Below, piece after piece: positions 16,697 through 33,546 of a DNA stretch of 33,574 nucleotides. Origin of the DNA: a virus; UHGV virus genome UHGV-0219389. One strand, written 5' to 3'. Positions within the stretch are counted from its first letter, which is position 1. Each line of letters opens with the position of its first letter. The position numbers were made by a program, and so were the translations under genes. Below the pieces are notes generated by a model. It saw only the letters and a program-made list of their open reading frames with translations, ran no database searches and had not been told where the DNA came from.

Positions 16697-17044
16697 ATGA
16701 AAACAACCTCAGTATTCTGGCAACCAGCCCTGCAGGCTCCCGGCGAAATTGTCCGGGGGCTGGATGATATCCGGCAGGCGATTCAAATTATCCTGCGGAC
16801 TCCCCGCGGCAGCGACCCGCATCGCCCGGAGTTCGGCAGCAATCTGCATCTTTATATCGACTGGCCTGTAGACCGGGCCATTCCGCATGTGGTGCGCGAA
16901 TCCGTCGATGCCATCCGGCGCTGGGAGCCCCGCTGCCAGCTTATGTCAGTTAAACCCGCCGTCGACGGCGAACATCTTACGCTCCGGGTGAGCTGGAAAG
17001 GCTCAGACGGACAGACCCGGACTCAGGAGCTGCTATGGCGCTGA
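16697..17044 (+). CDS. baseplate wedge protein (GPW/gp25-like)
   Basis: 115-aa ORF in conserved position. Confidence 0.7.
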   Translation: MKTTSVFWQPALQAPGEIVRGLDDIRQAIQIILRTPRGSDPHRPEFGSNLHLYIDWPVDRAIPHVVRESVDAIRRWEPRCQLMSVKPAVDGEHLTLRVSWKGSDGQTRTQELLWR

Positions 17045-18711: not shown

Positions 18712-19875
18712 ATGGGAAACCTGAATGAAACAGAAAAGTGGGAAGAAAATATCTATCAACTGGAGACATCAGATCCGGTTCTGGGTGGTGCTGACGGGAT
18801 ATCAAATCGAGCCCCCCGGCAACTGGCAAACAGGACGAAATGGCTGAAGAAAAAAACGGAGGAAGCCGCACAGTCACTGGCTGAACACGTACGTTCCCGT
18901 AACCACCCGGACGCGACACTGACAGCTAAGGGGTTCACCCAACTGAGCAGTGCCACCAACAGCACCTCTGAAACGCTGGCCGCCACACCAAAAGCCGTCA
19001 AGGCTGCATACGACCTTGCAGCCGGCAAGGCGCCCGTCAGCCACACTCACCCGTGGAGTCAGATAACGGGAGTGCCTGCTGCCTCGCTGACGGCAAAAGG
19101 CACCGTACAACTGAGCAGCGCCATCAACAGCACGTCTGAAACGCTGGCCGCCACACCGAAAGCGGTCAAGGCTGCATACGATCTGGCAAACGGAAAACAA
19201 CCGGCAGATGCCACGCTCACTGCTCTGGCAGGACTTGCCACTGCAGCAGATCGGTTGCCTTATTTTACCGGAGCAGACCGCGCAGCGCTGGCAACCCTTA
19301 CAGCTATTGGTCGCGCTATTATCGCTAAGGGCAGTATAAAAGATGTCCTCAATTACCTTGGTTTGGGGGAAGGCTCTGCATTGCCTGTTGGTGTACCGGT
19401 TCCGTGGCCCACCGCCACACCGCCAGCAGGCTGGTTAAAGTGCGACGGGCGCGCCTTTACAAAAGAACAATATCCTGTTCTGGCCAGAGTCTACCCGACC
19501 CTCCGTCTTCCCGATTTACGCGGTGAGTTTATCCGTGGATGGGACGACGGGCGCAAAGTTGATACAGGACGTAAGTTGCTGTCCGCACAAGGGGCAACGC
19601 TGTTAAGAACAGCAATGCTGGATTATTATAACCAGGACACTACGGGAACCTCGGGGATAGTCGGCATGGGATTCAACAATGAAGATTCCATTACAGACCT
19701 TCGTGAGGGCAGCTTTAAAATGCCGGACGGGACAACATTCAGCGATCCTGTCATGGCAATGTCAGACAATGGTATGCAGGCTACTATTCTGACCTCTATC
19801 AGAAGCGGGTATGCGAAGGGTATCACTGTCAGACCCCGTAGCATTGCACTTAATTACATTGTGAGGGCAGTTTAA
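18712..19875 (+). CDS. tail fiber protein (constant N-part plus invertible C-terminal variant Sv)
   Basis: ATG at 18712; internal repeats TAKG(F/T)xQLSSA(T/I)NSTSETLAATPKAVKAAYDLA; C-terminal part from about 19360 lies in the invertible segment. Confidence 0.8.
   Translation: MGNLNETEKWEENIYQLETSDPVLGGADGISNRAPRQLANRTKWLKKKTEEAAQSLAEHVRSRNHPDATLTAKGFTQLSSATNSTSETLAATPKAVKAAYDLAAGKAPVSHTHPWSQITGVPAASLTAKGTVQLSSAINSTSETLAATPKAVKAAYDLANGKQPADATLTALAGLATAADRLPYFTGADRAALATLTAIGRAIIAKGSIKDVLNYLGLGEGSALPVGVPVPWPTATPPAGWLKCDGRAFTKEQYPVLARVYPTLRLPDLRGEFIRGWDDGRKVDTGRKLLSAQGATLLRTAMLDYYNQDTTGTSGIVGMGFNNEDSITDLREGSFKMPDGTTFSDPVMAMSDNGMQATILTSIRSGYAKGITVRPRSIALNYIVRAV
18921..19200. repeat. intragenic tail-fiber repeat, 2 copies about 168 bp apart
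   Basis: Duplicated 30-aa motif in the fiber shaft. Confidence 0.7.
19346..19371. other. gix-like crossover site, left (tcctcaattacc-TT-GGTTTGGGGGAA)
   Basis: 26-bp site with inner half-site matching the Hin/Gin/Cin half-site pattern GGTTTnnnnnAA; central TT. Confidence 0.55.
19358..19437. repeat. 80-bp perfect inverted repeat, left copy
   Basis: Reverse complement identical to 20883..20962; encodes the shared peptide GLGEGSALPVGVPVPWPTATPPAGWL. Confidence 0.9.
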
Positions 19876-20489
19876 TGAGTAACACTGCAGTTCTGGATGA
19901 AAACGGTATCGCCACTGTAGCGGGCGATATCACTGTATATCACTATGACGAGGAAACCCGGGAATACACCTCATCCTCTGTGGAGTATCTCGCCCTTGGG
20001 GTGGGTACTCCGGCACATTCGTGCGCCGATGCACCGCCGGAGGCAATTTCGGGTTACGTGGTTTGCCGGACTGCCACGCTGAACGGGTGGGAGCATGTGC
20101 CTGATCACCGCGGCGAGACGGTATACAGCACGGAGAACGGTAACCCCGTTCTGATTACCCAACCGGGTGATTACCCGGCGGACACCACCACAAAACAGCC
20201 TGCCACACCATGGGATACCTGGAACGGTGAAGCGTGGGTAACTGATACTGAACGGCATAGAGCCGCAGAGCTGGAGACTGCCAGACTGCAACGCCAGAAA
20301 CGGGTGGATCAGGCGATGAAGTCCATCGACCTCATCAACCTCAAACTGCGGGCAGGTCGCAGTCTGAAACCAGAAGAAACGGCAAAACTGAACGCCGTGC
20401 TGGATTATATCGACGAGCTGAACGCACTGGATATCAGCAAGGCACCTGAAATCAGCTGGCCGGAAGCGCCACTGGCGCTTGCCGGCTGA
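19875..20489 (+). CDS. tail fiber assembly protein (Tfa/U-like)
   Basis: 204-aa ORF, start overlapping the fiber stop. Confidence 0.75.
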   Translation: MSNTAVLDENGIATVAGDITVYHYDEETREYTSSSVEYLALGVGTPAHSCADAPPEAISGYVVCRTATLNGWEHVPDHRGETVYSTENGNPVLITQPGDYPADTTTKQPATPWDTWNGEAWVTDTERHRAAELETARLQRQKRVDQAMKSIDLINLKLRAGRSLKPEETAKLNAVLDYIDELNALDISKAPEISWPEAPLALAG

Positions 20490-20495
20490 ACGGTA

Positions 20496-20962
20496 TCACG
20501 CCGCCCTCACGATATAGTTAAATGCGATATTGCGGGGGCGAGCTGATACATAAGCCCACCAGTCATATCTTTGTGCACCTTTAGAGGATGCATCAAATAT
20601 CCACTTTTTGCCATTTATGACCCCCAGTTGATTAGAGGTTAAAGCGTCACCAAATCCGTATTGTGTAGAGCCGAGCGAACTGATATCTCCGGTATCATTA
20701 TCATCAAAACCGGATACGATAGTCCCTTCCTGAAATGAAAGTAGCGCACGCCCGGTATCAACCTTGCGACCACCGTCCCATCCACGGATAAACTCACCGC
20801 GCAAATCGGGAAGACGGAGGGTCGGGTAGACTCTGGCCAGAACAGGATATTGTTCTTTGGTGAACGTAGCTCCGTTGCACTGTAACCAGCCTGCTGGCGG
20901 TGTGGCGGTGGGCCACGGAACCGGTACACCAACAGGCAATGCAGAGCCTTCCCCCAAACCAA
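20496..20962 (-). CDS. alternative tail fiber C-terminal segment (Sv'), promoterless
   Basis: Minus-strand frame whose N-terminal 26 aa equal residues of the + strand fiber at the inverted repeat, then diverges; both variants end ...NYIVRA. Confidence 0.7.
20883..20962. repeat. 80-bp perfect inverted repeat, right copy
   Basis: Reverse complement identical to 19358..19437. Confidence 0.9.
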
Positions 20963-20974
20963 CGTTTATCTCTC
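20949..20974. other. gix-like crossover site, right (TTCCCCCAAACC-AA-cgtttatctctc)
   Basis: Inner half-site TTCCCCCAAACC matches the invertase half-site pattern; central AA is the reverse complement of the left-site TT. Confidence 0.55.
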
Positions 20975-21029
20975 AAATCCTCCCCACATTATCTCAGTAC
21001 TTTAACCACTCAAAAGGGAGTATTTTTAA

Positions 21030-21601
21030 TGCTGATTGGCTACATACGTGTGTCAACAAATGACCAAAACACAGATTTGCAACGCAAAGCATTAATGTGC
21101 GCAGGATGTGAACAGATTTTTGAGGACAAAATGAGCGGAACCAAGTCGGAACGTCCAGGCCTGAAACGCGCTTTAAAGTGCCTTAAAAGAGGGGATACAT
21201 TGGTGGTCTGGAAGCTGGATCGGTTGGGTAGAAGAATGAAACACCTCATTGCTCTCACAGAAGAGCTACGCGCAAAAGGTGTCAATTTTCGCAGTCTGAC
21301 GGATTCAATCGATACCAGCACTCCGATGGGAAGGTTCTTTTTTCATATGATGGGTGCACTGGCAGAAATGGAGCGTGAACTGATAGTTGAGCGCACGCTG
21401 GCAGGACTGGCTGCTGCGCGAGCACAAGGGAGAGTTGGAGGACGTCGCCCGAAACTGACGAAGGAGCAGCATGAGCAGATCGCAAGATTGCTCCAGAAAG
21501 GGTATGACAGAAAGCGGCTGGCAATTATCTATGATATTGGACTGTCAACGATCTACCGCTACCACCCTGTTGGGACTGTCATAACGCAACCTGAAATGTA
21601 A
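21030..21601 (+). CDS. gin: DNA invertase (Gin/Pin/Cin/Hin family serine recombinase)
   Basis: N-terminal MLIGYIRVSTNDQNTDLQ catalytic-serine motif and C-terminal HTH; start at ATG 21030 inside track ORF 20900..21601. Confidence 0.85.
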
Positions 21602-21679
21602 TTCTTTTTCAAATAATGAAACGCCGCGTGGATGCCATTTATCGCACAAGATAGAGTGCATTTATCGCGCGGCGCATCA
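21602..21679. repeat. putative Mu-type right end with repeated transposase-binding-like motifs
   Basis: Direct repeats CATTTATCGC at 21636 and 21659, GAAACGCC motif at 21618, sequence ending ...GCGCGGCGCATCA; resembles the Mu right end from memory. Confidence 0.45.
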
Positions 21680-21741
21680 TACAGCCCTTTAGCCTCCAGT
21701 TCTTCCGCTTTGCTGTCTTTAATCATGCTGTACCTCACTGC

Positions 21742-22167
21742 TTAAAACGGTATTCCGTCCCCGTACGGATCATCGTGCTGGCCTGTCTGTTGTTTTGCCC
21801 TGTTCAGTGCGTCAGTAGCCTGGCCCTGCTGGCCTTTTTTGCCGCCCGGTCGCGCCGTTCGCGCACTGATTACGCTGTCTGCGATGACCTGCCAGCCCTG
21901 CCGCGTTTCGCCGTTCTGGCCTGTCCACTGGCTTACCTGCATGTTACCCGCCACGCTCACCAGTTCGCCTTTCTGGTGTTTTGCCAGTGCGTCGGCCTGT
22001 CTGCCAAACGCCAGGACGGATAACCACATCGTCGCCGTTCCGTCATCTGCCTGGCTGCATGGCAGGGGAACCGCCATACTCGCCATCGCCATTTGTGTTC
22101 CCTTGCTGGTGGTCTTTAACTGCGGGTCAGCCACCAGCCGCCCGTAAGCCGCTATCTGTGCTGTCAT
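21742..22167 (-). CDS. SSB-like single-stranded DNA-binding protein
   Basis: 141 aa with Gly/Gln-rich linker and C-terminal acidic tail ending DGIPF, as in SSB (DDDIPF). Confidence 0.55.
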   Translation of the reverse strand: MTAQIAAYGRLVADPQLKTTSKGTQMAMASMAVPLPCSQADDGTATMWLSVLAFGRQADALAKHQKGELVSVAGNMQVSQWTGQNGETRQGWQVIADSVISARTARPGGKKGQQGQATDALNRAKQQTGQHDDPYGDGIPF

Positions 22168-22227
22168 GCTGTCTGTTCTCCGGTTTTAACGTTGATTGTT
22201 ACGCTTGTTTACACCCTTATGGTGAAA

Positions 22228-22376
22228 TTCTGCGGGTTATAATCGCACTTTTGCGGGTTATAACTGCCGTTTTGCGGGTTATTTTGGGTATTTTACGGGT
22301 TACGATTTTCCTGCCATTCCTTTAATAATCATATGGATACTGATTTATCCACAGAAATAACCCGCATAACCCGCAA
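22228..22376. repeat. iteron array (candidate replication origin)
   Basis: Four direct copies of (T)TTTGCGGGTTAT spaced exactly 21 bp (22231, 22252, 22273, 22294), an AT-rich spacer, then two inverted copies ATAACCCGCA (22357, 22366). Confidence 0.7.
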
Positions 22377-22403
22377 AATTTTCACCCTACACGCGAGAAA
22401 AAA

Positions 22404-24530
22404 TTAATCTTCTTCGCTTTCTGGCTGGAACATCAGCACGTAAAAAACATGCTGCTTCCCCCCAATTTTGCCGAGCGCCTTTTTCTTGTAACGGCGATCG
22501 TTACCCGCTTCCAGCATTCCGGCAGCACTCAACGCGCGGGCAAAGTGAGACGGATTAAATCCCTGTGCTATCTCACCCTCAAATACATGCGGGAACGTGT
22601 AAAAACGGAACTCGTCATCTTCGTTTCTGATACTCCCCTTTCTGTATCCGGCAAGCTCTTTAATCGGTAAATCACGCTCGTCAGAGTTGGGCCAGGGAAG
22701 GTATCTGCTGAATCCGAACGACGCTAAAAAAGCCTCTGCCTGTTCAACCATCTGTTTAAACTCCCTGTTACCCGTGCCGAACTCCTTCACCCAGGCATTA
22801 AAATTATGCTGTATGGCATCGCGGCATTCCTGCTCATCCCAGCCAGTAACATGACCTGAAAGCACAAGCGCGGCCTCCAGTATGGCAAATCGCTCCCCCA
22901 CACGGTGAACCTGTTCGCCGTAGCTCTCCGGTATCAGGTTGCGCCACCGCTCACGGCATGTCCTTACCGTGTCCTTTGCCTCCTGCTGGTGTTCTGCCAG
23001 CCATTTAACCCACTCACGACCCGCCGCCCCGTGATTTGCTGTCCAGGCATCCTTTAACGCGTCTGCGTGCGCCTTTCCGGTGCTGTATTCGTGAAATTGC
23101 GTGGCTTTTTCCATCGGAACGTTAAGCAGGCGGACAAGCTGCCCCGCTTTGACTTTTATCCCCTCCGTTTTGAGGAATGTCTCAACGTCCATTTCTCCGG
23201 TGCTGATTGCCACCGTTCGCCAGTGTTTTATCTCCCTGTTGCCGCCGTCCTTTGCCCCCTGTAATTTCCCGGAACCGTTAAACAGCGTATAGGCTGACGT
23301 GGACACCTCCCGCGCGTTTCCGGCCTGGCCTATTTCATCCAGGGGTAAAAGCCCGTCATTGTGTGCCTCTGCTTCGTTGGCGATACCTAACGCTGTGCCG
23401 TACCAGGTCAGCCGCTGCGCGTCCGGCTCTCCCCATAAACTTGATGCGATGTTCTGCGTTGTGGTCTTACCTGCCGATGACTGTTCGAAAAGATGTACCC
23501 CGAAGCCGTCAGCGCCCACCAGCCCGATTAATGGTGCGGATAACGATACCGCCACCCCCAGCATCATGGACGGATTACCACCAGCCAGTCGCGCCACGGT
23601 GTCGCGCCAGCCCTCCGCCGTTCCTGCCACGGAATAGCCATTAACAGCAGCAGTTTTTCCGGTAAACAGGACTGGCTTTTCGCAATCACCAATGACCGAA
23701 CCGTCCGGCATGATGTACGCGCCAAAATGCCAGCCCGTTGTTGTGCTTAACTGCCATTCCTCATGGCTTCCGCTTAACTGCATCCAGTCAGCCAGGATTG
23801 CCCTGTATTTACCGTTGGTTGTTACGTTCAGTCCGTGGTCTTTCAGCAGCCGCCAGCCGTCACGGTCGCCAATGCCACCGCACGGAACCGCCATTGTGAT
23901 GACTTCATGATTTGCTGGCTTTTTCCAGCGCATCACGCGGTAATGTTCTTTGCCGATTGTCCCCGTTCCCAGCAGTTCAAGCGGGGAACATAACCACGTC
24001 TCAGGCCGGATAATTTCGCCTGACTGCTTGTCCACTTTTGGCGTAACCCAGAAAACACCATCGGCGCGGCTTTCAACGCGGGGCTTTAATTCATCATCAC
24101 CCGGGCTTTCTGTGATTTTTTTCTTTAAGGGCAACACCAGACTTTCCCCGCGCTCGTATTCGTCTTTGAGGCGAGGCAACTGGTCGGATAAATCCGCCGG
24201 GCTGGTGTCAGTTATCCCCGCGTATTCGTATACGGTCTTCACGCCAGCCACAGCCAGCAACGTGACGATCTGTGTAAGGCTACGTTCAGTGATGTGCCCT
24301 GCGCGGTAAATACGCACACACTGACGGCTATCATCAATAATTTGATAACCGGTAATATCTTTCAGGTGTTCATCTGACAGAACGACAGGCGGCACATTGT
24401 CGGCGGCAATATGCTTACCTGCCCATTCCTGCCACTCTTTCGCATGGCTCCACGCATCACTACCCGCAAAGATGATAACCTCCGTCATTTTGTCGGCTGG
24501 CTGGTGCTTTAAGTTTGGTGCGCGCTTCAT
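22404..24530 (-). CDS. primase-helicase-like replication protein (P-loop NTPase)
   Basis: 708 aa with P-loop-like FEQSSAGKTT; placed beside the iterons as replication initiators are in P4-like and PICI-like elements. Confidence 0.55.
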   Translation of the reverse strand: MKRAPNLKHQPADKMTEVIIFAGSDAWSHAKEWQEWAGKHIAADNVPPVVLSDEHLKDITGYQIIDDSRQCVRIYRAGHITERSLTQIVTLLAVAGVKTVYEYAGITDTSPADLSDQLPRLKDEYERGESLVLPLKKKITESPGDDELKPRVESRADGVFWVTPKVDKQSGEIIRPETWLCSPLELLGTGTIGKEHYRVMRWKKPANHEVITMAVPCGGIGDRDGWRLLKDHGLNVTTNGKYRAILADWMQLSGSHEEWQLSTTTGWHFGAYIMPDGSVIGDCEKPVLFTGKTAAVNGYSVAGTAEGWRDTVARLAGGNPSMMLGVAVSLSAPLIGLVGADGFGVHLFEQSSAGKTTTQNIASSLWGEPDAQRLTWYGTALGIANEAEAHNDGLLPLDEIGQAGNAREVSTSAYTLFNGSGKLQGAKDGGNREIKHWRTVAISTGEMDVETFLKTEGIKVKAGQLVRLLNVPMEKATQFHEYSTGKAHADALKDAWTANHGAAGREWVKWLAEHQQEAKDTVRTCRERWRNLIPESYGEQVHRVGERFAILEAALVLSGHVTGWDEQECRDAIQHNFNAWVKEFGTGNREFKQMVEQAEAFLASFGFSRYLPWPNSDERDLPIKELAGYRKGSIRNEDDEFRFYTFPHVFEGEIAQGFNPSHFARALSAAGMLEAGNDRRYKKKALGKIGGKQHVFYVLMFQPESEED

Positions 24531-24841
24531 TTTGCCTTTCTCCGTTCACGAATAATTTCACGTACTGCCTTAATGCGTTCCATACCTGTAACGCGCATGA
24601 TTCTGTCGATGTCGCTTAAGTTCGCTGGTGGTGCTTTGCTTACCAGGGTGAATTCACTCTCAAAACGCATATGTGACGACACGCAGGGATGCGCATAACC
24701 TTCGCGGATATAGGTCACGCGAAAATCATCGACGGTTTTAATCGTTATCGTGCTGCCGTATTTATCCTGGAAAATATCGCCGGGGCGGATTTCAGGCCGA
24801 GCGGAGCCGCTGGCAGTAAAGCCAGAATTTTTCTTTTTCAT
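24527..24841 (-). CDS. hypothetical protein, coupled to the primase gene
   Basis: 104-aa ORF overlapping the primase start by 4 bp. Confidence 0.45.
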   Translation of the reverse strand: MKKKNSGFTASGSARPEIRPGDIFQDKYGSTITIKTVDDFRVTYIREGYAHPCVSSHMRFESEFTLVSKAPPANLSDIDRIMRVTGMERIKAVREIIRERRKAK

Positions 24842-24847
24842 GTTTTT

Positions 24848-25066
24848 TTACTCCAGAGGCCGCTTTTTAGCGAAGAGTTCAATATCAGATGTCAGAGAAA
24901 CCTGTGTATTTGCCAGGTCTAACAACAAAGAAATAAGAATTTCCTCTCTGCTATCTGATTTATCGGTGCTAAGGCTGTTCATCCACATATTGACGACTTC
25001 CCTGATTTTTTTCGCAGAGTGCATGGCTTCAAATGCCAGGTCTTCAATATCATGTTTATTTCGCAT
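24848..25066 (-). CDS. hypothetical small protein
   Basis: Internal ATG of track ORF 24848..25132, chosen to limit overlap with the upstream gene. Confidence 0.35.
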   Translation of the reverse strand: MRNKHDIEDLAFEAMHSAKKIREVVNMWMNSLSTDKSDSREEILISLLLDLANTQVSLTSDIELFAKKRPLE

Positions 25067-25268
25067 AATCGCCCCCGCGTAACTGGTCTGCACTAACACC
25101 CGATTTAGTGAGCATTTCAGAAAATCCCGCAAGAGTGCTGATAAATTCGTTTTCCATTAAACGGCACTGGCATTTAACCCGGCCTTTTTCCAGATACACC
25201 AGTACGCACCCCGTATAATCTGACGGCACATTCAGCACTACAGATAAGTGCGCTTCATTATTATTCAT
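25056..25268 (-). CDS. hypothetical small protein
   Basis: 70-aa ORF in the same operon. Confidence 0.35.
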   Translation of the reverse strand: MNNNEAHLSVVLNVPSDYTGCVLVYLEKGRVKCQCRLMENEFISTLAGFSEMLTKSGVSADQLRGGDYAK

Positions 25269-25497
25269 GGCTCACCACCTCCATATCAGCCATGATAATT
25301 TTGCTGGCCTCATTCAGTGCCATATCAGCACTAAGTTGCATTACAGCCAGTGAATGAGGAACGAAAGCCCCGGCATATTCTGTTTCGCTGGTGGCGTGCT
25401 TATGCGCCTTGTCTGCGATAACAGAAATATCAATCAGCGCGTGCATCAGCGTTTTGATGGCTTCGGCGGCTGCGTCCGGACGGGTGTTATTGCACAT
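25261..25497 (-). CDS. hypothetical small protein
   Basis: 78-aa ORF overlapping its neighbours at both ends. Confidence 0.35.
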   Translation of the reverse strand: MCNNTRPDAAAEAIKTLMHALIDISVIADKAHKHATSETEYAGAFVPHSLAVMQLSADMALNEASKIIMADMEVVSHE

Positions 25498-25693
25498 GGA
25501 GCACCCCCTGACGAATACGGGCGGCGAATACCATCACGCAGCCAGCCGGGGATTGCTGGCGTGCTTCCTGTTCGCTGGTGGCCACGATGTGAATCACGCG
25601 CGGTTGTGCGGTGCTCAGGGCGATAAAACGCCAGATGTATTTATTCAGGTTGTGCGAGTCCCGCCCTTGCGGGTGTGTGGTATGATTTCTCAT
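25487..25693 (-). CDS. hypothetical small protein, first gene of the leftward operon
   Basis: 68-aa ORF from ATG 25693 with GAGG RBS; this is the C-terminal part of the 301-aa track ORF, whose upstream part crosses operator palindromes. Confidence 0.4.
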   Translation of the reverse strand: MRNHTTHPQGRDSHNLNKYIWRFIALSTAQPRVIHIVATSEQEARQQSPAGCVMVFAARIRQGVLHVQ

Positions 25694-25770
25694 AGCTACC
25701 TCGATACTCTTGCTATCGTTGGTGGTTAGACGCCCTGCATGTGTTGCGAGCACTGCGGGGCGTTGCTTAA

Positions 25771-25826
25771 TTTGAGTGACAAAACTCAAACTGTGCGCAC
25801 AGATTAAAATCATGTGTGCGCACATG
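25771..25826. promoter_or_regulatory. divergent promoter/operator region with palindromes
   Basis: TTTGAGT-N6-ACTCAAA at 25771-25790; perfect palindrome TGTGCGCACA at 25792-25801 and again at 25815-25824; half-site TGTGCGC near 25862. Confidence 0.6.
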
Positions 25827-25898
25827 TCAATACTTAACATCTCATTTTTTTTGCTGTATTGTGTGCGCCCATAAAGTCCATTTAAGTGAGGTGCATCA

Positions 25899-26096
25899 AT
25901 GTCTAGCGGTAACACAAACAACAAATCAGCAAAGAAAAATATTCGATTCCCACATGAGCTTATAGATGGGATTGATGCCAGCGTTGAACAAGAAAAATTA
26001 ACTAATCCTAGTGCTAATTTTTCCGCATGGGTCTTAGATGCCTGTGGACGCAAATTAAAATATGAACAGCGCCGGAAGGCCAAAGAATCAGAATAA
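25899..26096 (+). CDS. ribbon-helix-helix (Arc/Mnt-like) putative repressor
   Basis: 65 aa; segment KNIRFPHELIDGIDASVEQEKLTNPSANFSAWVLDAC has the beta-strand/helix/helix pattern of Arc (RWPREVLDLVRKVAEENGRSVNSEIYQRV, from memory). Confidence 0.5.
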   Translation: MSSGNTNNKSAKKNIRFPHELIDGIDASVEQEKLTNPSANFSAWVLDACGRKLKYEQRRKAKESE

Positions 26097-26138
26097 TCAC
26101 TATCAGCGCCGTGGTGTGAGTAACTACGGCGCATTGCT

Positions 26139-26327
26139 ATGCAGGACAACACAATGACCGATAAAGAATTGACCAAAACATTATCACCGACACGGAAAAG
26201 ACGGCGCAGAAAGATAGAGCATGAATCAGAAAGATTCGCACCTTGTTCGTTTGCTCTTGAGAAATTCCTTAAAGAGCGCAGGAAAAAGCTCTCGTTGCAA
26301 ACCTTGGAACGAACCAAATCTGACTGA
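26139..26327 (+). CDS. hypothetical basic protein
   Basis: 62-aa Lys/Arg-rich ORF downstream of the RHH gene; weak RBS. Confidence 0.25.
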   Translation: MQDNTMTDKELTKTLSPTRKRRRRKIEHESERFAPCSFALEKFLKERRKKLSLQTLERTKSD

Positions 26328-26460
26328 TCACATTGCCCACCAGCCGCAAATGTGGCATTGTTGGTGATGCTTTTGTTTTCCCTTGTTCCCACTGGCTACC
26401 CTTTTGCGGTCGCCTTTGTTTTGCCTGTTATCCGGCAATAGTGGCGCTTCGTCACCTGTC

Positions 26461-26549
26461 TGATATAATTCCACTGCTTATATTCATTTTTTGCGCAGTA
26501 GGTTAATTGTTCGCAAGGGCGCTCCGGCAACGGGGCGCTTTTTGTTTTT
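26461..26549 (+). ncRNA. candidate small RNA (extended -10 promoter to intrinsic terminator, about 70 nt)
   Basis: TGaTATAAT at 26461-26469; stem-loop TTGCG..CGCAA; terminator GCGCTCCG-GCAA-CGGGGCGC + TTTTTGTTTTT at 26519-26549; no ORF with RBS between. Confidence 0.35.
26519..26549 (+). terminator. intrinsic terminator (8-bp stem, GCAA tetraloop, U-tract)
   Basis: GCGCTCCG / CGGGGCGC stem with one G-U pair, followed by TTTTTGTTTTT. Confidence 0.6.
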
Positions 26550-26707
26550 ACCCACCAGCACAATAAAAATCTTCATTTTCCATTTTTGTAAAATTTCATG
26601 CTTTCCGGACGACTGGTCATATGTCATTTTTTAGCAGAAGATTTTGCCTTGCTGGTGGGTAGCTTCCCGGTCAACACGATGTACCGTATAATCAACACCG
26701 CGTGTGG

Positions 26708-27292
26708 TTACTGAATACGCTCACCAAAGTAAAACTCAGGCTGGTATTCACGTATCAGCCTTTTTTCTTCTTCCTCCAGCTCACGCTTTTTGCGCTTACA
26801 TGCCTGTAGCTCCCTCCCCTTCTCGCTGGCACTTATCTGATATTGCTCTTTGCGGCGGGAAAAATCCTGTAATGCGCCCCACGGGATACCATAAGCCCCC
26901 GTTTTTCTGATACCCGGTATCACATTTCTGAATACCCAGTTACTGAAACGATGGGCGAACGTGCCAGGAGTAGCAGCTTTGCGACTTCTGGCAATCAGCT
27001 TGTAAAAGCCAGATTCAGAAACGACGCTATGATTTGGATTTCCGCGAATACCGTAAGTTAAAGTTACGGTATTACTTTCATCATCATCCAGAGCTTGCAA
27101 CGCCATGCGTGAATTGGATAATTCAAGCGCCGCACAAACATCCTTTGCAACAAACCACGGATCGCCGTTCAGATACACCACACGAACATCCACGCCATCA
27201 AAACGTAGAACGACCTGATCACGAATATCGCAGAATTTTTTCACTGGACGTGCATTCCCCTTGCCCATCATGGCAATATTTTTATTCATCAC
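26708..27292 (-). CDS. Bro-N domain antirepressor-like protein
   Basis: N-terminal motif DGDPWFVAKDVCAALEL characteristic of Bro-N; 194 aa; GAGG RBS. Confidence 0.65.
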   Translation of the reverse strand: MMNKNIAMMGKGNARPVKKFCDIRDQVVLRFDGVDVRVVYLNGDPWFVAKDVCAALELSNSRMALQALDDDESNTVTLTYGIRGNPNHSVVSESGFYKLIARSRKAATPGTFAHRFSNWVFRNVIPGIRKTGAYGIPWGALQDFSRRKEQYQISASEKGRELQACKRKKRELEEEEKRLIREYQPEFYFGERIQ

Positions 27293-27308
27293 TTTCTACC
27301 TCACATAC

Positions 27309-27336
27309 AAAAAACCCCGCATTGCGTGGTGCGGGG
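27309..27336 (-). terminator. intrinsic terminator after the AlpA-like gene
   Basis: Minus-strand stem CCCCGCA / TGCGGGG followed by TTTTTT. Confidence 0.55.
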
Positions 27337-27346
27337 TTGTCGGTAA

Positions 27347-27625
27347 TTACTTATTGGCGTTTTTGTATGGGCTGTTTACTTCCTTTACTCCTGGCGGATG
27401 CATAACCCACCAGAGCACATCAGAGAGCAACCAGGAAACAGACACTTTCCCTAAATGAGCACGAGCAGGAAATGCTCCCTCCTGTTCAAGTACCCAACGT
27501 CTGCTTCTTGAAAGCCCGGTACGATTGGCACACTCATGTTCGCGTATACGGCGATCATACGGTTCGCCATGCTCTTTCAGAATCTGAATGCGTTCTTCGG
27601 GTGTAGGATAAATAAATTTTTGCAT
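27347..27625 (-). CDS. AlpA-family HTH regulator
   Basis: Start at internal ATG 27625 (MQKF...) with AGGTGA RBS; TGLSRS..W HTH pattern. Confidence 0.55.
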   Translation of the reverse strand: MQKFIYPTPEERIQILKEHGEPYDRRIREHECANRTGLSRSRRWVLEQEGAFPARAHLGKVSVSWLLSDVLWWVMHPPGVKEVNSPYKNANK

Positions 27626-27637
27626 AAAAATATCACC

Positions 27638-27665
27638 TATAAAAAAACCCGCCAAAAGACGGGTT
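27638..27665 (-). terminator. intrinsic terminator-like hairpin between the two AlpA-like genes
   Basis: Minus-strand stem AACCCG / CGGGTT followed by a 7-nt U-run. Confidence 0.45.
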
Positions 27666-27688
27666 GATTATATCTCATTTAATTTAGC

Positions 27689-27910
27689 TCAGGGTTTCCA
27701 TTCACCCTTTACCCATTCCAGCACCTCAGATAAGCGCCAGACTTTTGTTTGTGGGCCAATACATATTTTTCGTGGAAATTTTCCTTCCTTTTCAAGTAAC
27801 GATCTGTGTCTCCTGCCAAGAGCGGTTAACCATGCACATTCATCTTCCTTAATCATCCTGTCGATTGTTTTATCATTTTCAAGTTCTTCACGCGTAACTA
27901 TTTGAATCAT
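27689..27910 (-). CDS. excisionase/AlpA-like HTH protein
   Basis: Small ORF overlapping the integrase 3' end; AlpA-like pattern (ECAWLTALGRRHRSLLEKEGKFP). Confidence 0.5.
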   Translation of the reverse strand: MIQIVTREELENDKTIDRMIKEDECAWLTALGRRHRSLLEKEGKFPRKICIGPQTKVWRLSEVLEWVKGEWKP

Positions 27911-29111
27911 TACCGTCACCACTAATTAGCTTATTCAGATAGTCATACCACCAATTCATAGCTTCTTTTTTTCTGTCCATATACTGGCTTCTGTTATAAA
28001 CCCCGGCAACACCGCCTAATGTGTGCCCAAGCAACTGTTCAACCACATTATGTTCAAAACCATGATCACTTAGCTTTGTGGCAAACACTCTTCGCATATC
28101 ATGCGCCGTCCATTTCTCCGAGTGTTTCATCCTTTTCCATGTCTTACCGATAGTTACGCTTGCCGTACACTGACGCATATCAAACCCAATCACATTTTCT
28201 TTGTTACCTGTTATTTTTTTTAACGTAACTAACCAGTTAAACATGCCATCAGGAATCGGTCTGATTATTTCCCTGCCATTTTTGCTATGATCAGCGGGAA
28301 CGCGCCATAATTTCTTATCAAAATCCCACTCTCCCCAGGAGGACAGTAATACTTCTGACAGTCGACAACCAAAAACTACCAGGAAACGTAAAATAATTCG
28401 GTTTTCATATGATAATTCGTGATTGTCATAATCAGTATTAATACTTCGCCATAAATCTCTGATTTCATCATCTGTTAAAACCCTGCTTCTTCGCGCAGAC
28501 TTTTTTCCCACATCACAGACCTCAAGATCATCAATTTCATGACTAATCGCGTATTTTCTTACCCGACAAAATTTAAGCGCCTGTTTTGATATACGCAACA
28601 AAGCTCCGGCCTGTACAGGTGCTACTTTTTTTATTTTGTCAAAACACTTGATCCACATAGATATAGAGCAATCACTAAGTGGTACATGACCAATCACCGG
28701 ATAAATATGTTTACCAAAGCACTGCCTGATATGTTCTGCTCCCCTACGCTTATCCATTGCATAATTATCAAGCCAGTATTCAAGTGCCTCACGAACGGTA
28801 ACAGGTTGCAAGGTGGCTTCCCGTTCAATTTTTATCTGAATCCGTGGATCTCTGCCCTCCGCAAGCCAGGTTCGACACTGATCGCGCATCTCTCTCGCTG
28901 ATTTGAGACTCAGATCAGGATATTTCCCAAGTGTCAGCCAGATGGGCGCGGTTCCCCTTCCCGCCAGTCTGTAAAAGAAAACAAAACTAACACATCCGTA
29001 TTTACTGACCCGTACCGAAAGCCCGTTACCATCAGCGATGGTTTCCTGCCTCTCACTCCTGCGCCCAAGCAGGGAACGAAGTTTTTTATCGCTCAGTTTG
29101 TTTAGCGCCAT
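27888..29111 (-). CDS. int: tyrosine integrase (P4-type)
   Basis: N-terminal MALNKLSDKK...GNGLSVRVSKYG resembles P4-family integrase; C-terminal HDMRR...LLGH...Y catalytic region; start taken at ATG 29111. Confidence 0.85.
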   Translation of the reverse strand: MALNKLSDKKLRSLLGRRSERQETIADGNGLSVRVSKYGCVSFVFFYRLAGRGTAPIWLTLGKYPDLSLKSAREMRDQCRTWLAEGRDPRIQIKIEREATLQPVTVREALEYWLDNYAMDKRRGAEHIRQCFGKHIYPVIGHVPLSDCSISMWIKCFDKIKKVAPVQAGALLRISKQALKFCRVRKYAISHEIDDLEVCDVGKKSARRSRVLTDDEIRDLWRSINTDYDNHELSYENRIILRFLVVFGCRLSEVLLSSWGEWDFDKKLWRVPADHSKNGREIIRPIPDGMFNWLVTLKKITGNKENVIGFDMRQCTASVTIGKTWKRMKHSEKWTAHDMRRVFATKLSDHGFEHNVVEQLLGHTLGGVAGVYNRSQYMDRKKEAMNWWYDYLNKLISGDGNDSNSYA

Positions 29112-29116
29112 GTGAT

Positions 29117-30310
29117 TTATAACCCGTTTTTGCAATACACAGTGCAATACACAAATGATGAAAACAGCCAGAACCTTCCAGAAAAAACAAAAACGACGAA
29201 CAAGAAAAAATCTTTTTCTTTCATTTGGTTACTAAAAAAATCAGGACAGGTCGCACTGTTGTTACGGCGTGATGTTACTTTCTTGGTAAAAAAATTCACC
29301 CGCGCAGAGACCTGCTCCTTCGCTTTTTTCGCCAGACGACGCAGATCATCCCAGCGTTTACAGATGCCCAGGCCAGGATTCGCTTTCTGCCAGACCGTTT
29401 CATCAAACGGATCATCTCCCTCATCAAGCGTGTAAATGATCGCAAAGTAAGAGTCGTCTTTTACAGCGCCCTCCACGTCGCTGTTATAGCCTCGCAATAC
29501 CTTGATGGCGTAATCACGCTGCTCGTAACAAATCCCTTCCTTGTTAAAGCCAGCCGTGGTGATACCAAATAACAGGGACTGCAGACGGGCACCGGTTGCC
29601 GTTTCCAGAACGTCCCACACGTCGCGGGTTTTATGTGCATGCAGCTCATCAATAATGGCGCAGTGGATGTTCAGACCGTCCAGGTTGTTTGCATCCGAGG
29701 AAAGCGGTTCAAATTTTGATGCGCTCTGCTCCTGGTAAATCGCCAGCTTGTTGAAATCAAACAACCGCCCGAGTGTCGACCGGGCTTTTCTGACCATATT
29801 TTTGGCGTCTTCAAACACGATTCTGGCCTGGTCAAGCGTGGTTGCGGCTGAATACACCTCAGCTCCGCCTTCACTATCTGCCCCCGTCATATACAGACCG
29901 ATACCCGATGACAGGGTTGATTTTGCGTTTTTACGGGCAACTTCGTTGTATGCTGTCCGGAACCGGCGCACCATCACCGGGCGTCCACTGCCATCGCTGC
30001 GCATGACAACTTCCCCGGTTTCTTCATTCACCAGCGGAATGACAAAACCAAAAATATTAATGAGGATAAACACATGCCAGTCCATCAACTCAATGGGCTG
30101 ACCTGCCAGCGCCCCTTTCACATGGGGTACAAATTTGTAGAAATTAAGGATGTGCTGTGCACGAGGTTCACTGAAATAAATCCCCCGCTCTTCGCCGTAC
30201 TTCAGATCATCAAGAAAACGCTGGCAGGCCAGACGGACAAATTCGCCAGCAACAATTTCTCCTGCAACAACACGTTCGGCGTAGCGGATCCCGTCAGCCA
30301 CTTTTGCCAT
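29117..30310 (-). pseudogene. terminase large subunit, 3'-truncated (ATPase domain only)
   Basis: terL-like sequence through about residue 340 (..WQKANPGLG..), then low-complexity tail from AT-rich DNA abutting the integrase start. Confidence 0.65.
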
Positions 30311-30792
30311 CAGTCTCTCGCTTTTAAAAGCTCTGCCAGCGGATCAACATCATCCGGTCCGGCGGTATTTACTTTCGCCCGGCTTGCCGGTGACATACCA
30401 AACTCTGCAAGCATCGCCCGAATCCGCTTCCAGGCATCAGCCTTCATCGCAGCAGCCGGGTGTGCCTTGATCAGCACATCGCCATTCTGCGTTTTCGTGC
30501 GGTAGGTATAACCCTCAACATCGAGTATTTCGCAGTGATGCCGGTATTCGGTGTAGGCTTCCACCAGTAACTCGAGCGCACGTGCATCGAGCTGAGAAAT
30601 GATCCCTTCCGCATTCAGCTCTTCCGCCATTCGCCTGAACCAGTACTTCCCCTGCGCCCCTAAATGTTGCGGAATTTTAGGGAGACCTTTTTCATCCTTT
30701 TTAGCGGTTTTTTTGAGGTCTTTAACTGGCCGCTTTGAGGGGTTGCCTCGTATCAAATGCAGGCGTGGCGGGATTTTCGGGGGTCCAGACAT
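30310..30792 (-). CDS. terminase small subunit (P27-family-like)
   Basis: 160-aa ORF with stop overlapping the terL start; position between HNH and terL. Confidence 0.65.
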   Translation of the reverse strand: MSGPPKIPPRLHLIRGNPSKRPVKDLKKTAKKDEKGLPKIPQHLGAQGKYWFRRMAEELNAEGIISQLDARALELLVEAYTEYRHHCEILDVEGYTYRTKTQNGDVLIKAHPAAAMKADAWKRIRAMLAEFGMSPASRAKVNTAGPDDVDPLAELLKARD

Positions 30793-30939
30793 AATCGGTT
30801 TTACCTATCAATCATTTAATCACATTCCAAAAAAAAGTTTTCGAACCTGCGGCGATGCGAGGAAAGGTCAGGCGGCGGTACTGAGCAGCCAGGGTTGCAG
30901 AGATTTGACCTGCCCCTCCCCTACAGATGGGAACTGTTA

Positions 30940-31290
30940 TCAATTGATGCGTTCGCGCGCTGTTTTTGCTTTATGACAGGGCCAGCACAGACTCTGCAGG
31001 TTACTGTCTGCATCCGTGCCACCATGAGCTTTCGGAATGATGTGGTCCACAGTTCTGGCTTCAACGGCTCTCCCATTGCGCAGGCAGTTCTGACACAGAT
31101 GATTATCACGCTTCAGTATGCGCGCACGTATGGCATCCCATTTCGAGCCATAGCCACGCTGGTGGCGGCTCAGTCCGCGTTGATGCTGTACCCATCCTTC
31201 GCCACGATGTTTATCGCAGTAACCAGAACTGTCTGTGGTTGTACCTGCACATCCACGCTTACGGCAGGCGCGTGGGATTCGTGGGGGCAT
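30940..31290 (-). CDS. HNH endonuclease
   Basis: Motif CQNCLRNGR...DHIIPKAHGG...NLQSLCWPCH; start at ATG 31290 (MPPRIP) with GGAG RBS. Confidence 0.8.
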   Translation of the reverse strand: MPPRIPRACRKRGCAGTTTDSSGYCDKHRGEGWVQHQRGLSRHQRGYGSKWDAIRARILKRDNHLCQNCLRNGRAVEARTVDHIIPKAHGGTDADSNLQSLCWPCHKAKTARERIN

Positions 31291-31410
31291 ATGTACTCCA
31301 ATGAAGAAGCCACCGACATAGCCTCCTCCATTCATAGTGAAACTATTTTCATCTACCCAGTAATGAATTCTTTGTAGAGTTGTGATCAATACAACTCACT
31401 AATGGAGAGG

Positions 31411-31445
31411 CTTGTCCAACACGTTGGACAAGTTTCCTGTTTGAT
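31411..31445 (+). terminator. 10-bp inverted repeat (CTTGTCCAAC-ac-GTTGGACAAG) followed by a T-rich run
   Basis: Perfect arms at 31411-31432, then tttcctgtttgattt. Confidence 0.35.
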
Positions 31446-31815
31446 TTACTGGACACTATAGAAGGACAGAATGCCTTCATCACTCGAATAACATCAATTA
31501 AGGAGGTTCAACATGTTTCATTCCACAAATCATCAGGCTGTAATTATGGCTGCATCAGCTTGTGCCACAGACCTTTTCCGCTTCACTTTGAGCCTGATTC
31601 ATTTCTACCTGACCGGCTCGCCTCTATCTTTTTAATCCCCGCTTTATCCAAATTGCATTGCCAGAATGCCGACAACAGACTGACATTCAAATCCTGACTA
31701 CCTCCAATAGGCTGAGCATCCACCTATATAGTTTTAATTTTCATCAATCCATTTAACTATCGTTTAATTGTTGTCACATAGGATTCTGCCATTTTTAACA
31801 ATGCAGGATAATAAG

Positions 31816-32109
31816 ATGAAAAAAATGTTGTTTTCTGCCGCTCTGGCAATGCTTATTACAGGATGTGCTCAACAGACGTTTACTGTTGGAAACAAACCGA
31901 CAGCAGTAACACCAAAGGAAACCATCACCCATCATTTCTTCGTTTCGGGAATTGGACAGGAGAAAACTGTTGATGCAGCCAAAATTTGTGGCGGCGCAGA
32001 AAATGTTGTTAAAACAGAAACCCAGCAAACATTCGTAAATGGATTTCTCGGTTTTATTACTTTAGGCATTTATACTCCACTGGAAGCGCGTGTGTATTGC
32101 TCACAATAA
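31816..32109 (+). CDS. bor: Bor outer-membrane lipoprotein
   Basis: 97 aa; MKKMLFSAALAMLITGCAQQTFTV... with lipobox ITGC, nearly identical to lambda Bor as remembered; opposite strand to Rz as in lambda. Confidence 0.85.
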   Translation: MKKMLFSAALAMLITGCAQQTFTVGNKPTAVTPKETITHHFFVSGIGQEKTVDAAKICGGAENVVKTETQQTFVNGFLGFITLGIYTPLEARVYCSQ

Positions 32110-32140
32110 TTGCATGAGTTGCCCATCGATATGGGCAGCT

Positions 32141-32602
32141 CTATCTGCACTGCTCATTAATATACTTCTGGGTTCCTTCCAGTTGTTTTTGCATAGTGAT
32201 CAGCCTCTCTCTGAGGGTGAAATAATCCCGTTCAGCGGTGTCTGCCAGTCGGGGGCTGGTTGCATTATCCACGCCGGAGGCGGTGGTGGCTTCACGCACT
32301 GACTGACAGACTGCTTTGATGTGCAACCGACGACGACCAGCGGCAACATCAGCGCGCAGAGTTTCATTTTCAGCTTTCGCATTGGCTAATTCTCTCGAGT
32401 ACTTTGCATCGAGTGCAGCAACATCACGCTGACGCTGCTGCATGTCAGCGATGGTGGCGATCGCCTGCTTCAGCTCACTGACTTTTTTATCACGCTGTTC
32501 TTTGTAGGCGATGGCGTTATCACGGTAATGATTGACCGCCCACGACAGGCAGACGATGATGCAGATAACCAAAGCATAAATAATCGCGGCGACTCTGCTC
32601 AC
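32141..32602 (-). CDS. Rz: i-spanin Rz
   Basis: N-terminal transmembrane segment and coiled-coil periplasmic domain, near-identical to lambda Rz as remembered; probable GTG start at 32602 overlapping the endolysin stop. Confidence 0.8.
32200..32382 (-). CDS. Rz1: o-spanin Rz1 lipoprotein, embedded in Rz in the +1 frame
   Basis: 60 aa, lipobox VVGC, proline-rich KPPPPPAW, ends ..SPSERG, lying entirely inside Rz. Confidence 0.85.
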
Positions 32603-33132
32603 TGCTCTATCCCCCAACAGGCTAATGCGCTTTCCTGGTCACGACGAATAACCTGTCCATAGCAGTTATTTGAACGTATGCGGCAATCGCGCCCACCATC
32701 TTTTATCCACCAGCGAATCGCCTCGCATGCGCCCTTACGATCACCGGCATTCAGCCGCTTATAAAACGTCGACGGGAAACACTTACCGGGGCCAATGTTA
32801 TAGGGACAGAATGACGCTATACCCGCTTTTTGTGGTTCGGTCAGTGGTACTTTAATATTGCGCTCCACCCATGCCAGCGCCTTATCACGCTCAATGGCGT
32901 TGACCTGGTCGCATTTTTCCTTCGACAGTTTCATACCGGGAAAAACGGGTTTTCCATCCACCATCGTGGCACCCCGACAGATGGTCCAGATGCCGGACCC
33001 ATCGCGGTATGCCGTTGTGTGGTTACCTTCTTTTTCATCCAGAAACTGGTCGAGAATATCAGGCGCGGGCGCACCGACGGCAATCAGTGCCAGAACGGCA
33101 GCCGACAGGCCGTATCTGATTTTTGCGTTCAT
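32599..33132 (-). CDS. endolysin (lysozyme), SAR-type
   Basis: 177 aa with N-terminal weakly hydrophobic segment [16 protein letters not shown]; resembles prophage RrrQ/RrrD-type lysozymes from memory. Confidence 0.8.
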
Positions 33133-33195
33133 GGATATTTATCAGGATTTATCGGTTTCTGCCCACGGACAGGTTTATCTGTTCCGGTCAGTGAC

Positions 33196-33546
33196 TTAAG
33201 GTTGTGATTCCGGAGGAGTCTTCAGAGAACCAGTAATTCTTCCCGGTAGCTTTCCTTTGTAGGTTATCCATACATTCTGCGCCTCTAAAATTACGGGGCG
33301 CTTTTCCGGCGACTGCTCATCCCCTTCACATAACCCGGCAGCAACATCCAGGAAGACCTGTCTGATGCTCATTCTGGCTGCTGCCTCATAAAACTCCAGC
33401 GCGGCACCTTCAACACGGTCCAGCGAGATGTCCAGGTCAAAAATTTCACCGTCAAAGCGTTTTTTGTCCCGTAACGCTAAAGTTACCGTAACTTTATTCT
33501 CAAAATTGCGGATCCCTTTCACAATCAGTTCATAGTTTTGAGTCAT
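33196..33546 (-). CDS. DUF1327 (YdfR-like) phage protein
   Basis: 116-aa ORF immediately upstream of the endolysin; placement between holin and lysozyme as in Qin-type cassettes (from memory). Confidence 0.4.
   Translation of the reverse strand: MTQNYELIVKGIRNFENKVTVTLALRDKKRFDGEIFDLDISLDRVEGAALEFYEAAARMSIRQVFLDVAAGLCEGDEQSPEKRPVILEAQNVWITYKGKLPGRITGSLKTPPESQP

Follow-up and report, generated by a model that had tools for sequence, protein, structure and literature searches.

SaPI origins lie directly downstream of rep. Their 6–12 iterons form two oppositely oriented groups of at least two, one on each side of an AT-rich centre, and are recognised by a winged-helix C-terminal domain (PMC9371898). 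The SCCmec helicase Cch contains DUF927 and is related to SaPIbov1 Rep (PMC7581432). In PICIs of E. coli, the described origin is an iteron/AT-rich region 3′ of rep; a rep-ori segment of one of these islands, EcCICFT073, maintained a thermosensitive plasmid, and deletion of either rep or ori impaired maintenance (PMC6092414). EcCICFT073 carries the only experimentally tested Gram-negative PICI origin, and its helicase belongs to another family than the Rep protein described here. The iteron sequence described here does not occur in the supplementary text that accompanies the 2018 PICI paper.

Here we describe an array of short repeats in a 33,574-nucleotide stretch of the virus genome UHGV-0219389 (this whole 33.5-kb stretch is referred to as the window). 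The array is very probably the Rep-binding origin module of a cfPICI-type PICI replicon, which is truncated in the window. On sequence comparison, the precise family to which it belongs is that of the SaPI/PICI Rep-ori replicons, in their DUF927 branch. As origins of this kind have already been published, the array adds a member and is not new in kind. The spacing code, the 19 repeat specificities, the mapped recognition segment, the natural swaps and the split modules described below are computational results that appear to go somewhat beyond the descriptions that we found.

Geometry and conservation of the repeat array

Six copies of the iteron TGCGGGTTAT lie within 22231–22375. They are arranged in the layout of SaPI/PICI origins, i.e. 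four direct copies, a 53-bp spacer of 30% GC and two inverted copies, as follows:

22231..22240, + strand: distal iteron 1, farthest from rep (TGCGGGTTAT; exact 9-mer; repeat family D1)
22252..22261, + strand: distal iteron 2 (TGCGGGTTAT; exact search, repeat finder and Tandem Repeats Finder)
22273..22282, + strand: distal iteron 3 (TGCGGGTTAT; exact search, repeat finder and Tandem Repeats Finder)
22294..22303, + strand: distal iteron 4, degenerate (TACGGGTTAC; one-mismatch match)
22304..22356, no strand: AT-rich spacer, 53 bp, presumed DNA-unwinding element (GC 0.30)
22319..22332, − strand: central spacer motif, semi-conserved (ATGATTATTAAAGG on the rep strand; 73-locus spacer alignment)
22345..22353, + strand: perfect DnaA-box consensus (TTATCCACA; pattern scan)
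22357..22366, − strand: proximal iteron 5, inverted relative to iterons 1–4 (TGCGGGTTAT on the − strand)
22366..22375, − strand: proximal iteron 6, 9 bp from iteron 5 and nearest the rep stop (22404–22406)

On the + strand, the core 9-mer TGCGGGTTA is exact at 22231, 22252 and 22273, both as read and by exact search. The fourth direct copy, at 22294, reads TACGGGTTA, with one mismatch to the core, and the phasing is exactly 21 bp. The inverted copies of the 9-mer, at 22358–22366 and 22367–22375 on the − strand, are 9 bp apart, and the + strand from 22357 through the inverted pair (22357–22375) reads ATAACCCGCATAACCCGCA. An earlier note, made from the letters of the window alone, had described four direct copies at 21-bp phasing, the last of them degenerate, and two inverted copies beyond an AT-rich spacer. 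Exact search recovers the direct copies at 22231, 22252, 22273 and 22294, and the inverted ones are present at 22357–22375. The spacer is AT-rich as described, but its length is 53 bp (22304–22356) and not 50 bp, and the 12-mer flank given for the first copy was wrong, the sequence being TCTGCGGGTTAT, not TTTGCGGGTTAT. The counterpart of the degenerate distal iteron 4 in a 98%-identical island of E. coli O177:H21 (L001) is the exact TGCGGGTTAC.

The array is real and far above chance. Exact copies of the 9-mer number five in the 33.5-kb window, all of them within the 145-bp array, against an expectation of about 0.26 per window. With up to one mismatch, the whole window holds 18 copies including the six of the array (expected 7.5 ± 2.8), and those outside the array are at chance level. 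Tandem Repeats Finder independently returned a period-21 array at 22231–22282 and a period-9 array at 22357–22375, and the repeat finder gave the same repeat families and inverted pairs, with the 21-bp-spaced family as D1. GC content is 0.30 at 22300–22359, compared with about 0.6 in the flanking genes. A one-mismatch iteron, TGCGGGTCA, lies at 22121–22129 inside the ssb coding sequence, 110 bp from the first distal iteron; this iteron-like copy is kept in the close relatives L001, L002 and L004 and is probably a chance match.

The array occupies most of the 236-bp minus-strand gap between the rep stop and the ssb start, and the first iteron is reached 29 nt past the stop of the 708-aa DUF927 protein encoded by rep. 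Its placement downstream of a replication helicase gene and upstream of ssb had thus been read correctly in the earlier note.

Relatives of the locus were sought by scanning one genome per species, which gave 80 loci with a Rep relative from many enterobacterial genera. An 8-mer is repeated at least four times within 450 bp past the rep stop in 74 of 81 DUF927 loci; in control regions (inside rep, 1.4 kb further on, and shuffled) the 8-mer count almost never exceeds three. The first copy stands 22–31 nt past the rep stop in 70 of these 74 loci, a regularity that could serve for the automatic annotation of putative origins 22–31 nt past any DUF927 rep gene. On the rep side there are two or three copies 9 bp apart, and on the far side three or four copies in the opposite orientation with a spacing of 11, 21 and (21) bp. 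The 21-21-21 spacing of the window is shared with only two other loci. Copy numbers per locus cluster at 6 and 12. Spacers in the 74 loci measure 43–65 bp and average 79% A+T, in loci of about 50% GC overall. The iterons fall into 19 types that have one 10-bp register in common, the commonest being TGAACCAACA and that of the window ATAACCCGCA. It is rep and not ssb that the array accompanies: only 26 of 79 loci have ssb after the array, the next gene being variable.

Register alignment of 73 spacers gives the spacer motif a consensus of approximately TGATTTATAAGG, whose end is some 16 nt short of the first distal iteron. The spacer of E. coli 042 has diverged, with the iterons kept on both sides. 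The DnaA box at 22345–22353 is part of the AT-rich spacer, at a distance of 4 nt from the proximal iterons; such a box is found only in origins of the window's iteron type and is absent from the other types (background 0.018 per 460 bp), and the spacers of L002–L004 and of the diverged 042 type keep it as TTATACACA at the same place. Being restricted to the TAACCCGC iteron type, the DnaA box was rejected as a feature of the family. IHF sites and GATC were rejected as features too, the IHF consensus occurring in 2 of 73 spacers and GATC likewise in 2 of 73.

The Rep protein and repeat specificity

The gene that precedes the array and the segment of it that is discussed below are:

22404..24530, − strand: Rep initiator-helicase, 708 aa, with DUF927 at residues 168–435 (Pfam DUF927, E = 5.4e-46)
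22443..22511, − strand: Rep codons 674–696, basic segment, candidate DNA-recognition element (EAGNDRRYKKKALGKIGGKQHVF)

Rep residues 214–601 align to the SaPIbov1 replication initiator-helicase (PDB 8tch_A, phmmer E = 1.9e-14), and Rep has a weaker match to the SCCmec Cch helicase (PDB 5dgk_A, phmmer E = 1e-3). The same two structures, 8tch and 5dgk, are the only significant Foldseek matches of the AlphaFold2 model of whole Rep, which is a model of low confidence (pLDDT 50). Judged from these alignments, Rep is homologous to the self-loading helicases SaPIbov1 Rep and SCCmec Cch. The gene at 22404–24530 had previously been called primase-helicase-like; the helicase half of that description holds, with DUF927, and the primase half is not supported, since no primase domain was detected in the 708-aa Rep (no D5_N, Toprim or Zn-ribbon by Pfam). 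Rep relatives of about 900 aa in other genera do carry Zn_Ribbon_Prim and Toprim_3 on the DUF927 helicase, at the N-terminal position. Given the lack of a recognisable primase in Rep, priming would require a host or helper enzyme. No initiator domain of the RepA/pi/TrfA type (Rep_3/RepA winged-helix) was found in the neighbouring ORFs.

Rep residues 1–150 have no Pfam match. Residues 1–145 (24096–24530) are common to Rep and the otherwise unrelated D5_N-type Pri-Rep of EcCICFT073; the two proteins are 28% identical, with the similarity confined to the N-terminal ~145 residues and rising to about 60% over the first 100. This N-terminal part has a confident alpha/beta fold in the model (pLDDT 75–87). 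It resembles a portable module, perhaps one that recruits a primase or a host factor.

At the other end of the protein, the C-terminal domain is a candidate helix-turn-helix and may set iteron specificity. For predicting a common repeat type of two loci, identity over residues 630–708 of Rep reaches an AUC of 0.95, compared with 0.785 for the core (residues 150–600). The partial Mantel correlation between iteron and C-terminal domain given the core is 0.74 (p = 2e-4), and that of the reverse comparison is −0.19. In an alignment of 560 residues, 13 of the 25 most type-discriminating columns fall within Rep residues 674–696. Pfam HTH_56 (“Cch helix turn helix”) matches Rep 632–702 with E = 6e-4 and 20.3 bits, which is below the gathering score of 26.2, and is matched by 19 of 63 C-terminal domains of the family. 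A profile of the 63 C-terminal domains had no match among PDB sequences, and only fragments were obtained when the C-terminal domain by itself was searched against a database. The AlphaFold2 pLDDT is 50 for whole Rep and 47 for residues 560–708; the models are of no use for claims on the C-terminal fold, and that of whole Rep was used for the one Foldseek search.

Comparisons between islands indicate that natural swaps exchange the Rep C-terminus and the repeats together. Relative to L005, an E. albertii / E. coli island, the Rep core of the window is 94.7% identical but the C-terminal domain only 27.5%, and the iterons are ATAACCCGCA in the window and TGGGACAAG in L005. The DNA of these two islands is 90–96% identical on either side of a replaced, unalignable block of about 500 bp, which corresponds to the last ~100 rep codons plus the origin region. 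Against the Budvicia locus L064, identity is 54% in the core and 78% in the C-terminal domain, with a 1-nt difference in the iteron. The covariation is partly confounded by physical linkage, as the C-terminal coding region is only 30 bp from the iterons. Linkage alone is countered by distant modules (see below), which lie 2–8 kb off across unrelated cargo and match the rep-adjacent repeat in four iteron types. The table of specificities, in which each of the 19 iteron types is paired with a variant of the ~20-residue basic Rep segment, could be used for predicting the compatibility of co-resident satellites and for designing orthogonal Rep/ori pairs.

The island, its boundaries and the second module of its relatives

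The genes of the island that flank rep and the array, and those at its integrase end, are:

21742..22167, − strand: ssb, 141 aa, directly downstream of the putative origin (Pfam SSB, E = 3.8e-16; phrog_44)
24527..24841, − strand: DUF4222 gene, directly upstream of rep, a conserved partner position in E. coli PICIs including EcCICFT073
27347–27655: AlpA-like xis (excisionase)
27888–29147: integrase, tyrosine type

Upstream of rep, the same strand encodes DUF4222, small ORFs, a Bro-N anti-repressor, the AlpA-like excisionase and the tyrosine integrase. The block 21680–29147 is 96–97% identical to islands in complete E. coli genomes, which have the order int-HTH-Bro-Icd-like-DUF4222-DUF927-SSB-PerC-capsid-protease-portal-connector-HNH-TerS-TerL. 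By this gene content and order, the island has the organisation of a capsid-forming PICI (cfPICI). The island of the window holds int, AlpA-like xis, Bro-N, DUF4222, rep, ssb and a truncated perC, and lacks the capsid and packaging module; cfPICI homology starts at 21680 inside perC, which is cut after about 15 codons. Positions 1–21679 of the window are a P88-like myophage late region, with an invertible tail-fibre segment and a DNA invertase at its end, and positions 29117–33546 are part of a lambdoid prophage (lysis - HNH - TerS - TerL′). Megablast of 21700–24600 against the phage collection gave no match, and distant blastn found only the neighbouring invertase gene and weak primase-like stretches.

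The junction at 21679/21680 is sharp. P88-like homology stops here, and in an annotated P88-like prophage record the prophage ends here too, just past the invertase gene, with host aroA/serC coming next. The arrangement suggests a nesting of three levels, i.e. a prophage inside a satellite inside a prophage. The invertible tail-fibre cassette of the P88-like phage extends over 19875–21601 and consists of:

19875–20489, + strand: tail-fibre assembly gene
20496–20957, − strand: alternative fibre C-terminus, in opposite orientation
20900–21601, + strand: Hin/Cin-type DNA invertase

At the opposite boundary (27888–30310 in the window), int abuts a truncated prophage TerL, of which the N-terminal part is present (29117–30310). 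In the intact E. coli L004 (366–17403), the cfPICI is found inside a prophage terL, in the order TerL-N′ / int...island TerL / TerL-C′, followed by the portal gene. In Salmonella L092 (5534–7935), which has a related Rep, a truncated GpA ATPase-domain (terminase) gene is followed by int, with the prophage portal further downstream. For satellites of this lineage, insertion into a resident prophage's terminase gene thus appears to be a recurrent event; a search of the literature for satellites at such a site found nothing. Integrase residues 287–418 match the end of PHROG 9, “terminase large subunit”. It is likely that chimeric TerL′-integrase gene calls from such insertion sites have entered this family, and annotations that rest on PHROG 9 should be read with caution.

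Loci with 12 copies consist of two mirror-image modules side by side, in the order 9-bp set, AT-rich spacer, 21-bp set; 21-bp set, AT-rich spacer, 9-bp set. Of the 74 loci, 38 have both modules next to each other within about 330 bp. All seven of the six-copy relatives with flanks of at least 10 kb (the E. coli cfPICIs L004, L089 and L090; L091, L094 and L095; and the Plesiomonas cfPICI L099) have a mirror-image six-copy module 2.2–8.2 kb away. In the three E. coli cfPICIs, this second module is found about 80 bp past the island terL, 8 kb from rep, and in the Plesiomonas cfPICI, which has GTGGGTTA repeats, about 70 bp past terL and 7.6 kb away. In three E. coli islands with two other repeat types it lies 2.2–4.5 kb off, beyond ssb-proQ-perC cargo. 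An E. coli island with the repeat type of the window and 21-21-21 spacing has its second module contiguous with the first. The distant second modules, each a mirror image, were located at:

L004, 1385–1540: second mirror-image module
L089, 2277–2430: second mirror-image module
L090, 3501–3655: second mirror-image module
L091, 16630–16770: second mirror-image module
L094, 16664–16770: second mirror-image module
L099, about 19680–19820: second mirror-image module

Exact and one-mismatch searches found no second iteron cluster in the 33.5-kb window, a lack that follows from the island being cut at 21680. Since intact six-copy relatives have a second module and the window has none, the array may be only half an origin, and since the module missing here is present in all seven examined relatives, the element of the window may not self-replicate. 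What the window retains of the origin is probably the rep-proximal half alone; that its module would be insufficient alone seems to us rather doubtful.

It is quite possible, if somewhat short of probable, that the bipartite arrangement is a functional design and not an insertion accident. We would propose only tentatively that the origin consists of two mirror-image six-iteron modules, one per Rep hexamer and not necessarily adjacent, with the window's array as an orphaned half. In the cfPICIs of E. coli and Plesiomonas, the whole ssb-capsid-portal-terminase block (~8 kb) separates the modules, and in other islands 2–4.5 kb of cargo does so; in such a two-module origin, this cargo would have been inserted at the symmetry centre. 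The origin could then be a bipartite one in the manner of P4 ori/crr, conceivably acting by Rep-mediated looping, and the half in the window may have been cut off from its partner by the nested prophage. Should the split arrangement turn out to be functional, PICI replication would have a mechanistic link to the ori/crr requirement of P4, which has long been known yet is little understood.

A motif, TTTTGTATATATATACGAAAAATTGCATTCAGG(G)n, is seen at the outer edge of the second module (L004 1345–1382; L003 5785–5810; L091 about 16775–16815). It is conserved across E. coli islands that differ in iteron type and cargo, and might serve as a signal for packaging or as an additional unwinding element.

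Proposed function of the array and comparison with known systems

In the mechanism that we propose, the 708-aa DUF927 Rep would assemble as a hexamer. The six 10-bp iterons would be bound by its six putative C-terminal helix-turn-helix domains; two of these iterons stand close together, with a 9-bp spacing, on the rep side, and the other four, on the far side, have two-helical-turn phasing and point towards them. Binding of Rep would distort and melt the 53-bp AT-rich spacer, the helicase would load itself at the melted spacer, and the adjoining ssb gene would supply single-strand binding protein. Binding, melting and the start of replication at the array are modelled here on what has been demonstrated for SaPI Rep and ori; replication driven by a rep-ori segment, with binding and melting of the origin by Rep, is published for SaPIs and EcCICFT073 only. 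The reading as an iteron origin, put forward in the earlier note, is supported by the homology to SaPIbov1 Rep, the PICI gene order, the conserved geometry and the covariation of repeats and Rep C-terminus. On this reading, the array marks the place at which enterobacterial phage satellites of a widespread family begin to copy themselves.

An alternative is that the array serves mainly as an operator or promoter for ssb and the genes downstream, with Rep or an island regulator timing late expression. The array does lie in the 236-bp gap directly upstream of ssb and on its strand, rep is not followed by an intrinsic terminator, the spacer contains a semi-conserved TATAAG-like motif, and a weak sigma-70-like site with 9/12 matches overlaps iteron 4 (−35 at 22317–22312 and −10 at 22295–22290, − strand); the number of such promoters, however, equals that of shuffled sequence (1 found, 0.9 expected). 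As the distance to the rep stop is fixed (22–31 nt in 70 of 74 loci) and the downstream gene varies (ssb in 26 of 79), regulation is improbable as the main role. Moreover, a mirror-image module occurs at the end of the island, past terL, a location with no gene for it to regulate, and the partner protein is homologous to a replication initiator. A side role in the regulation of ssb is possible. Far less credible again is a site for packaging (cos/pac), partition or recombination that has no role in replication. Centromere-like and pac sites, too, typically contain repeats to which proteins bind, and the island family encodes its own TerS, TerL and HNH, but ParA/ParB genes are absent nearby, the array is present in islands without packaging genes (L091), the repeat type tracks the C-terminus of the helicase and not the terminase or integrase, and the integrase end of the element is about 7 kb away, at the int/TerL′ junction. 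No Rfam RNA families were found in 21600–22900.

The array could also be an accessory cis element comparable to P4 crr, with initiation taking place at a second, distant module and the copy in the window non-functional by itself. The annotated P4 record places crr immediately 3′ of alpha and the true ori at a distance of 4.5 kb, and both contain the same 8-bp repeats; every examined six-copy relative with long flanks likewise has a second module 2.2–8.2 kb off, and the window has no second cluster. However, the modules are mirror images of equivalent composition (9-bp set, AT-rich spacer, 21-bp set), and, contiguous within ~330 bp in 38 of 74 loci, they resemble the symmetric halves of an origin and not an ori plus an enhancer. 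The rep-adjacent module alone also fits the published description of PICI and SaPI origins (PMC9371898, PMC6092414). On balance we consider a crr-like role somewhat unlikely, and prefer to read the array as a Rep-binding origin module.

Read in this way, the array shares with iteron plasmids (pSC101, R6K, RK2, P1 and F) direct initiator sites about two helical turns apart beside an AT-rich region and, in the window, a perfect DnaA box, which within the family is restricted to this iteron type. Unlike in those plasmids, the predicted initiator is a helicase and not a winged-helix dimer of the RepA/pi/TrfA type, and only a 10-bp core is conserved in each 21-bp period. P4 is similar in having an iterated element directly downstream of the helicase gene, including 9-bp-spaced pairs and inverted copies, and a second element with the same repeats kilobases away, as in intact relatives of the island; the window itself has a single cluster. 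The P4 alpha protein, in contrast, is a Zn-ribbon/Toprim primase fused to a D5-type (D5_N SF3) helicase, the P4 type 1 repeats are TGTTCACC versus TGCGGGTTAT here, and P4 crr is a direct duplication of 2 × 120 bp. The likeness to P4 drawn in the earlier note consequently extends to position, with crr directly 3′ of alpha, but not to helicase family, repeat sequence or primase. As the Rep of the window is of the DUF927 and not the D5_N/SF3 type, has other repeats and has no Zn-ribbon/Toprim primase, P4 is an analogue and not the family of this replicon.

Gram-negative PICIs, as exemplified by EcCICFT073 (Fillol-Salom et al. 2018, ISME J), are of the same island type and share with the island the gene order int, alpA, icd-like, DUF4222, rep, ori, ssb and perC. 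Read directly, the EcCICFT073 sequence has the order DUF4222 - rep - 289-bp gap - (hyp) - ssb - perC, and 9-bp pairs of TGTCTACC repeats surround an AT-rich stretch within the gap. Its Pri-Rep, unlike the DUF927 protein of the window with its TGCGGGTTAT iterons, is a 584-aa helicase of the D5_N/SF3 type with TGTCTACC iterons. As this Rep is D5_N-type and has only the N-terminal ~145 residues in common with that of the window, the tested EcCICFT073 origin is a positional and architectural analogue, not the same replicon.

SaPIbov1/SaPI1 ori and Rep, as they are presented in later papers that cite Ubeda 2007 (PMC9371898, PMC7581432), resemble the locus in their helicase, which is homologous and carries DUF927 (PDB 8tch), and in an origin directly 3′ of rep with 6–12 short iterons in two opposed sets around an AT-rich centre. 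Specificity residing in the Rep C-terminal domain and self-loading of the helicase would be further points in common, which here are predicted from sequence comparison. On the same accounts, the iterons of SaPIs are 5–6 bp long, unlike the 10-bp iterons found here, which follow a fixed 9 / 11 / 21-bp spacing code. The present replicon further differs from SaPIs in its enterobacterial host and in the ability of its relatives to hold six-iteron halves kilobases apart.
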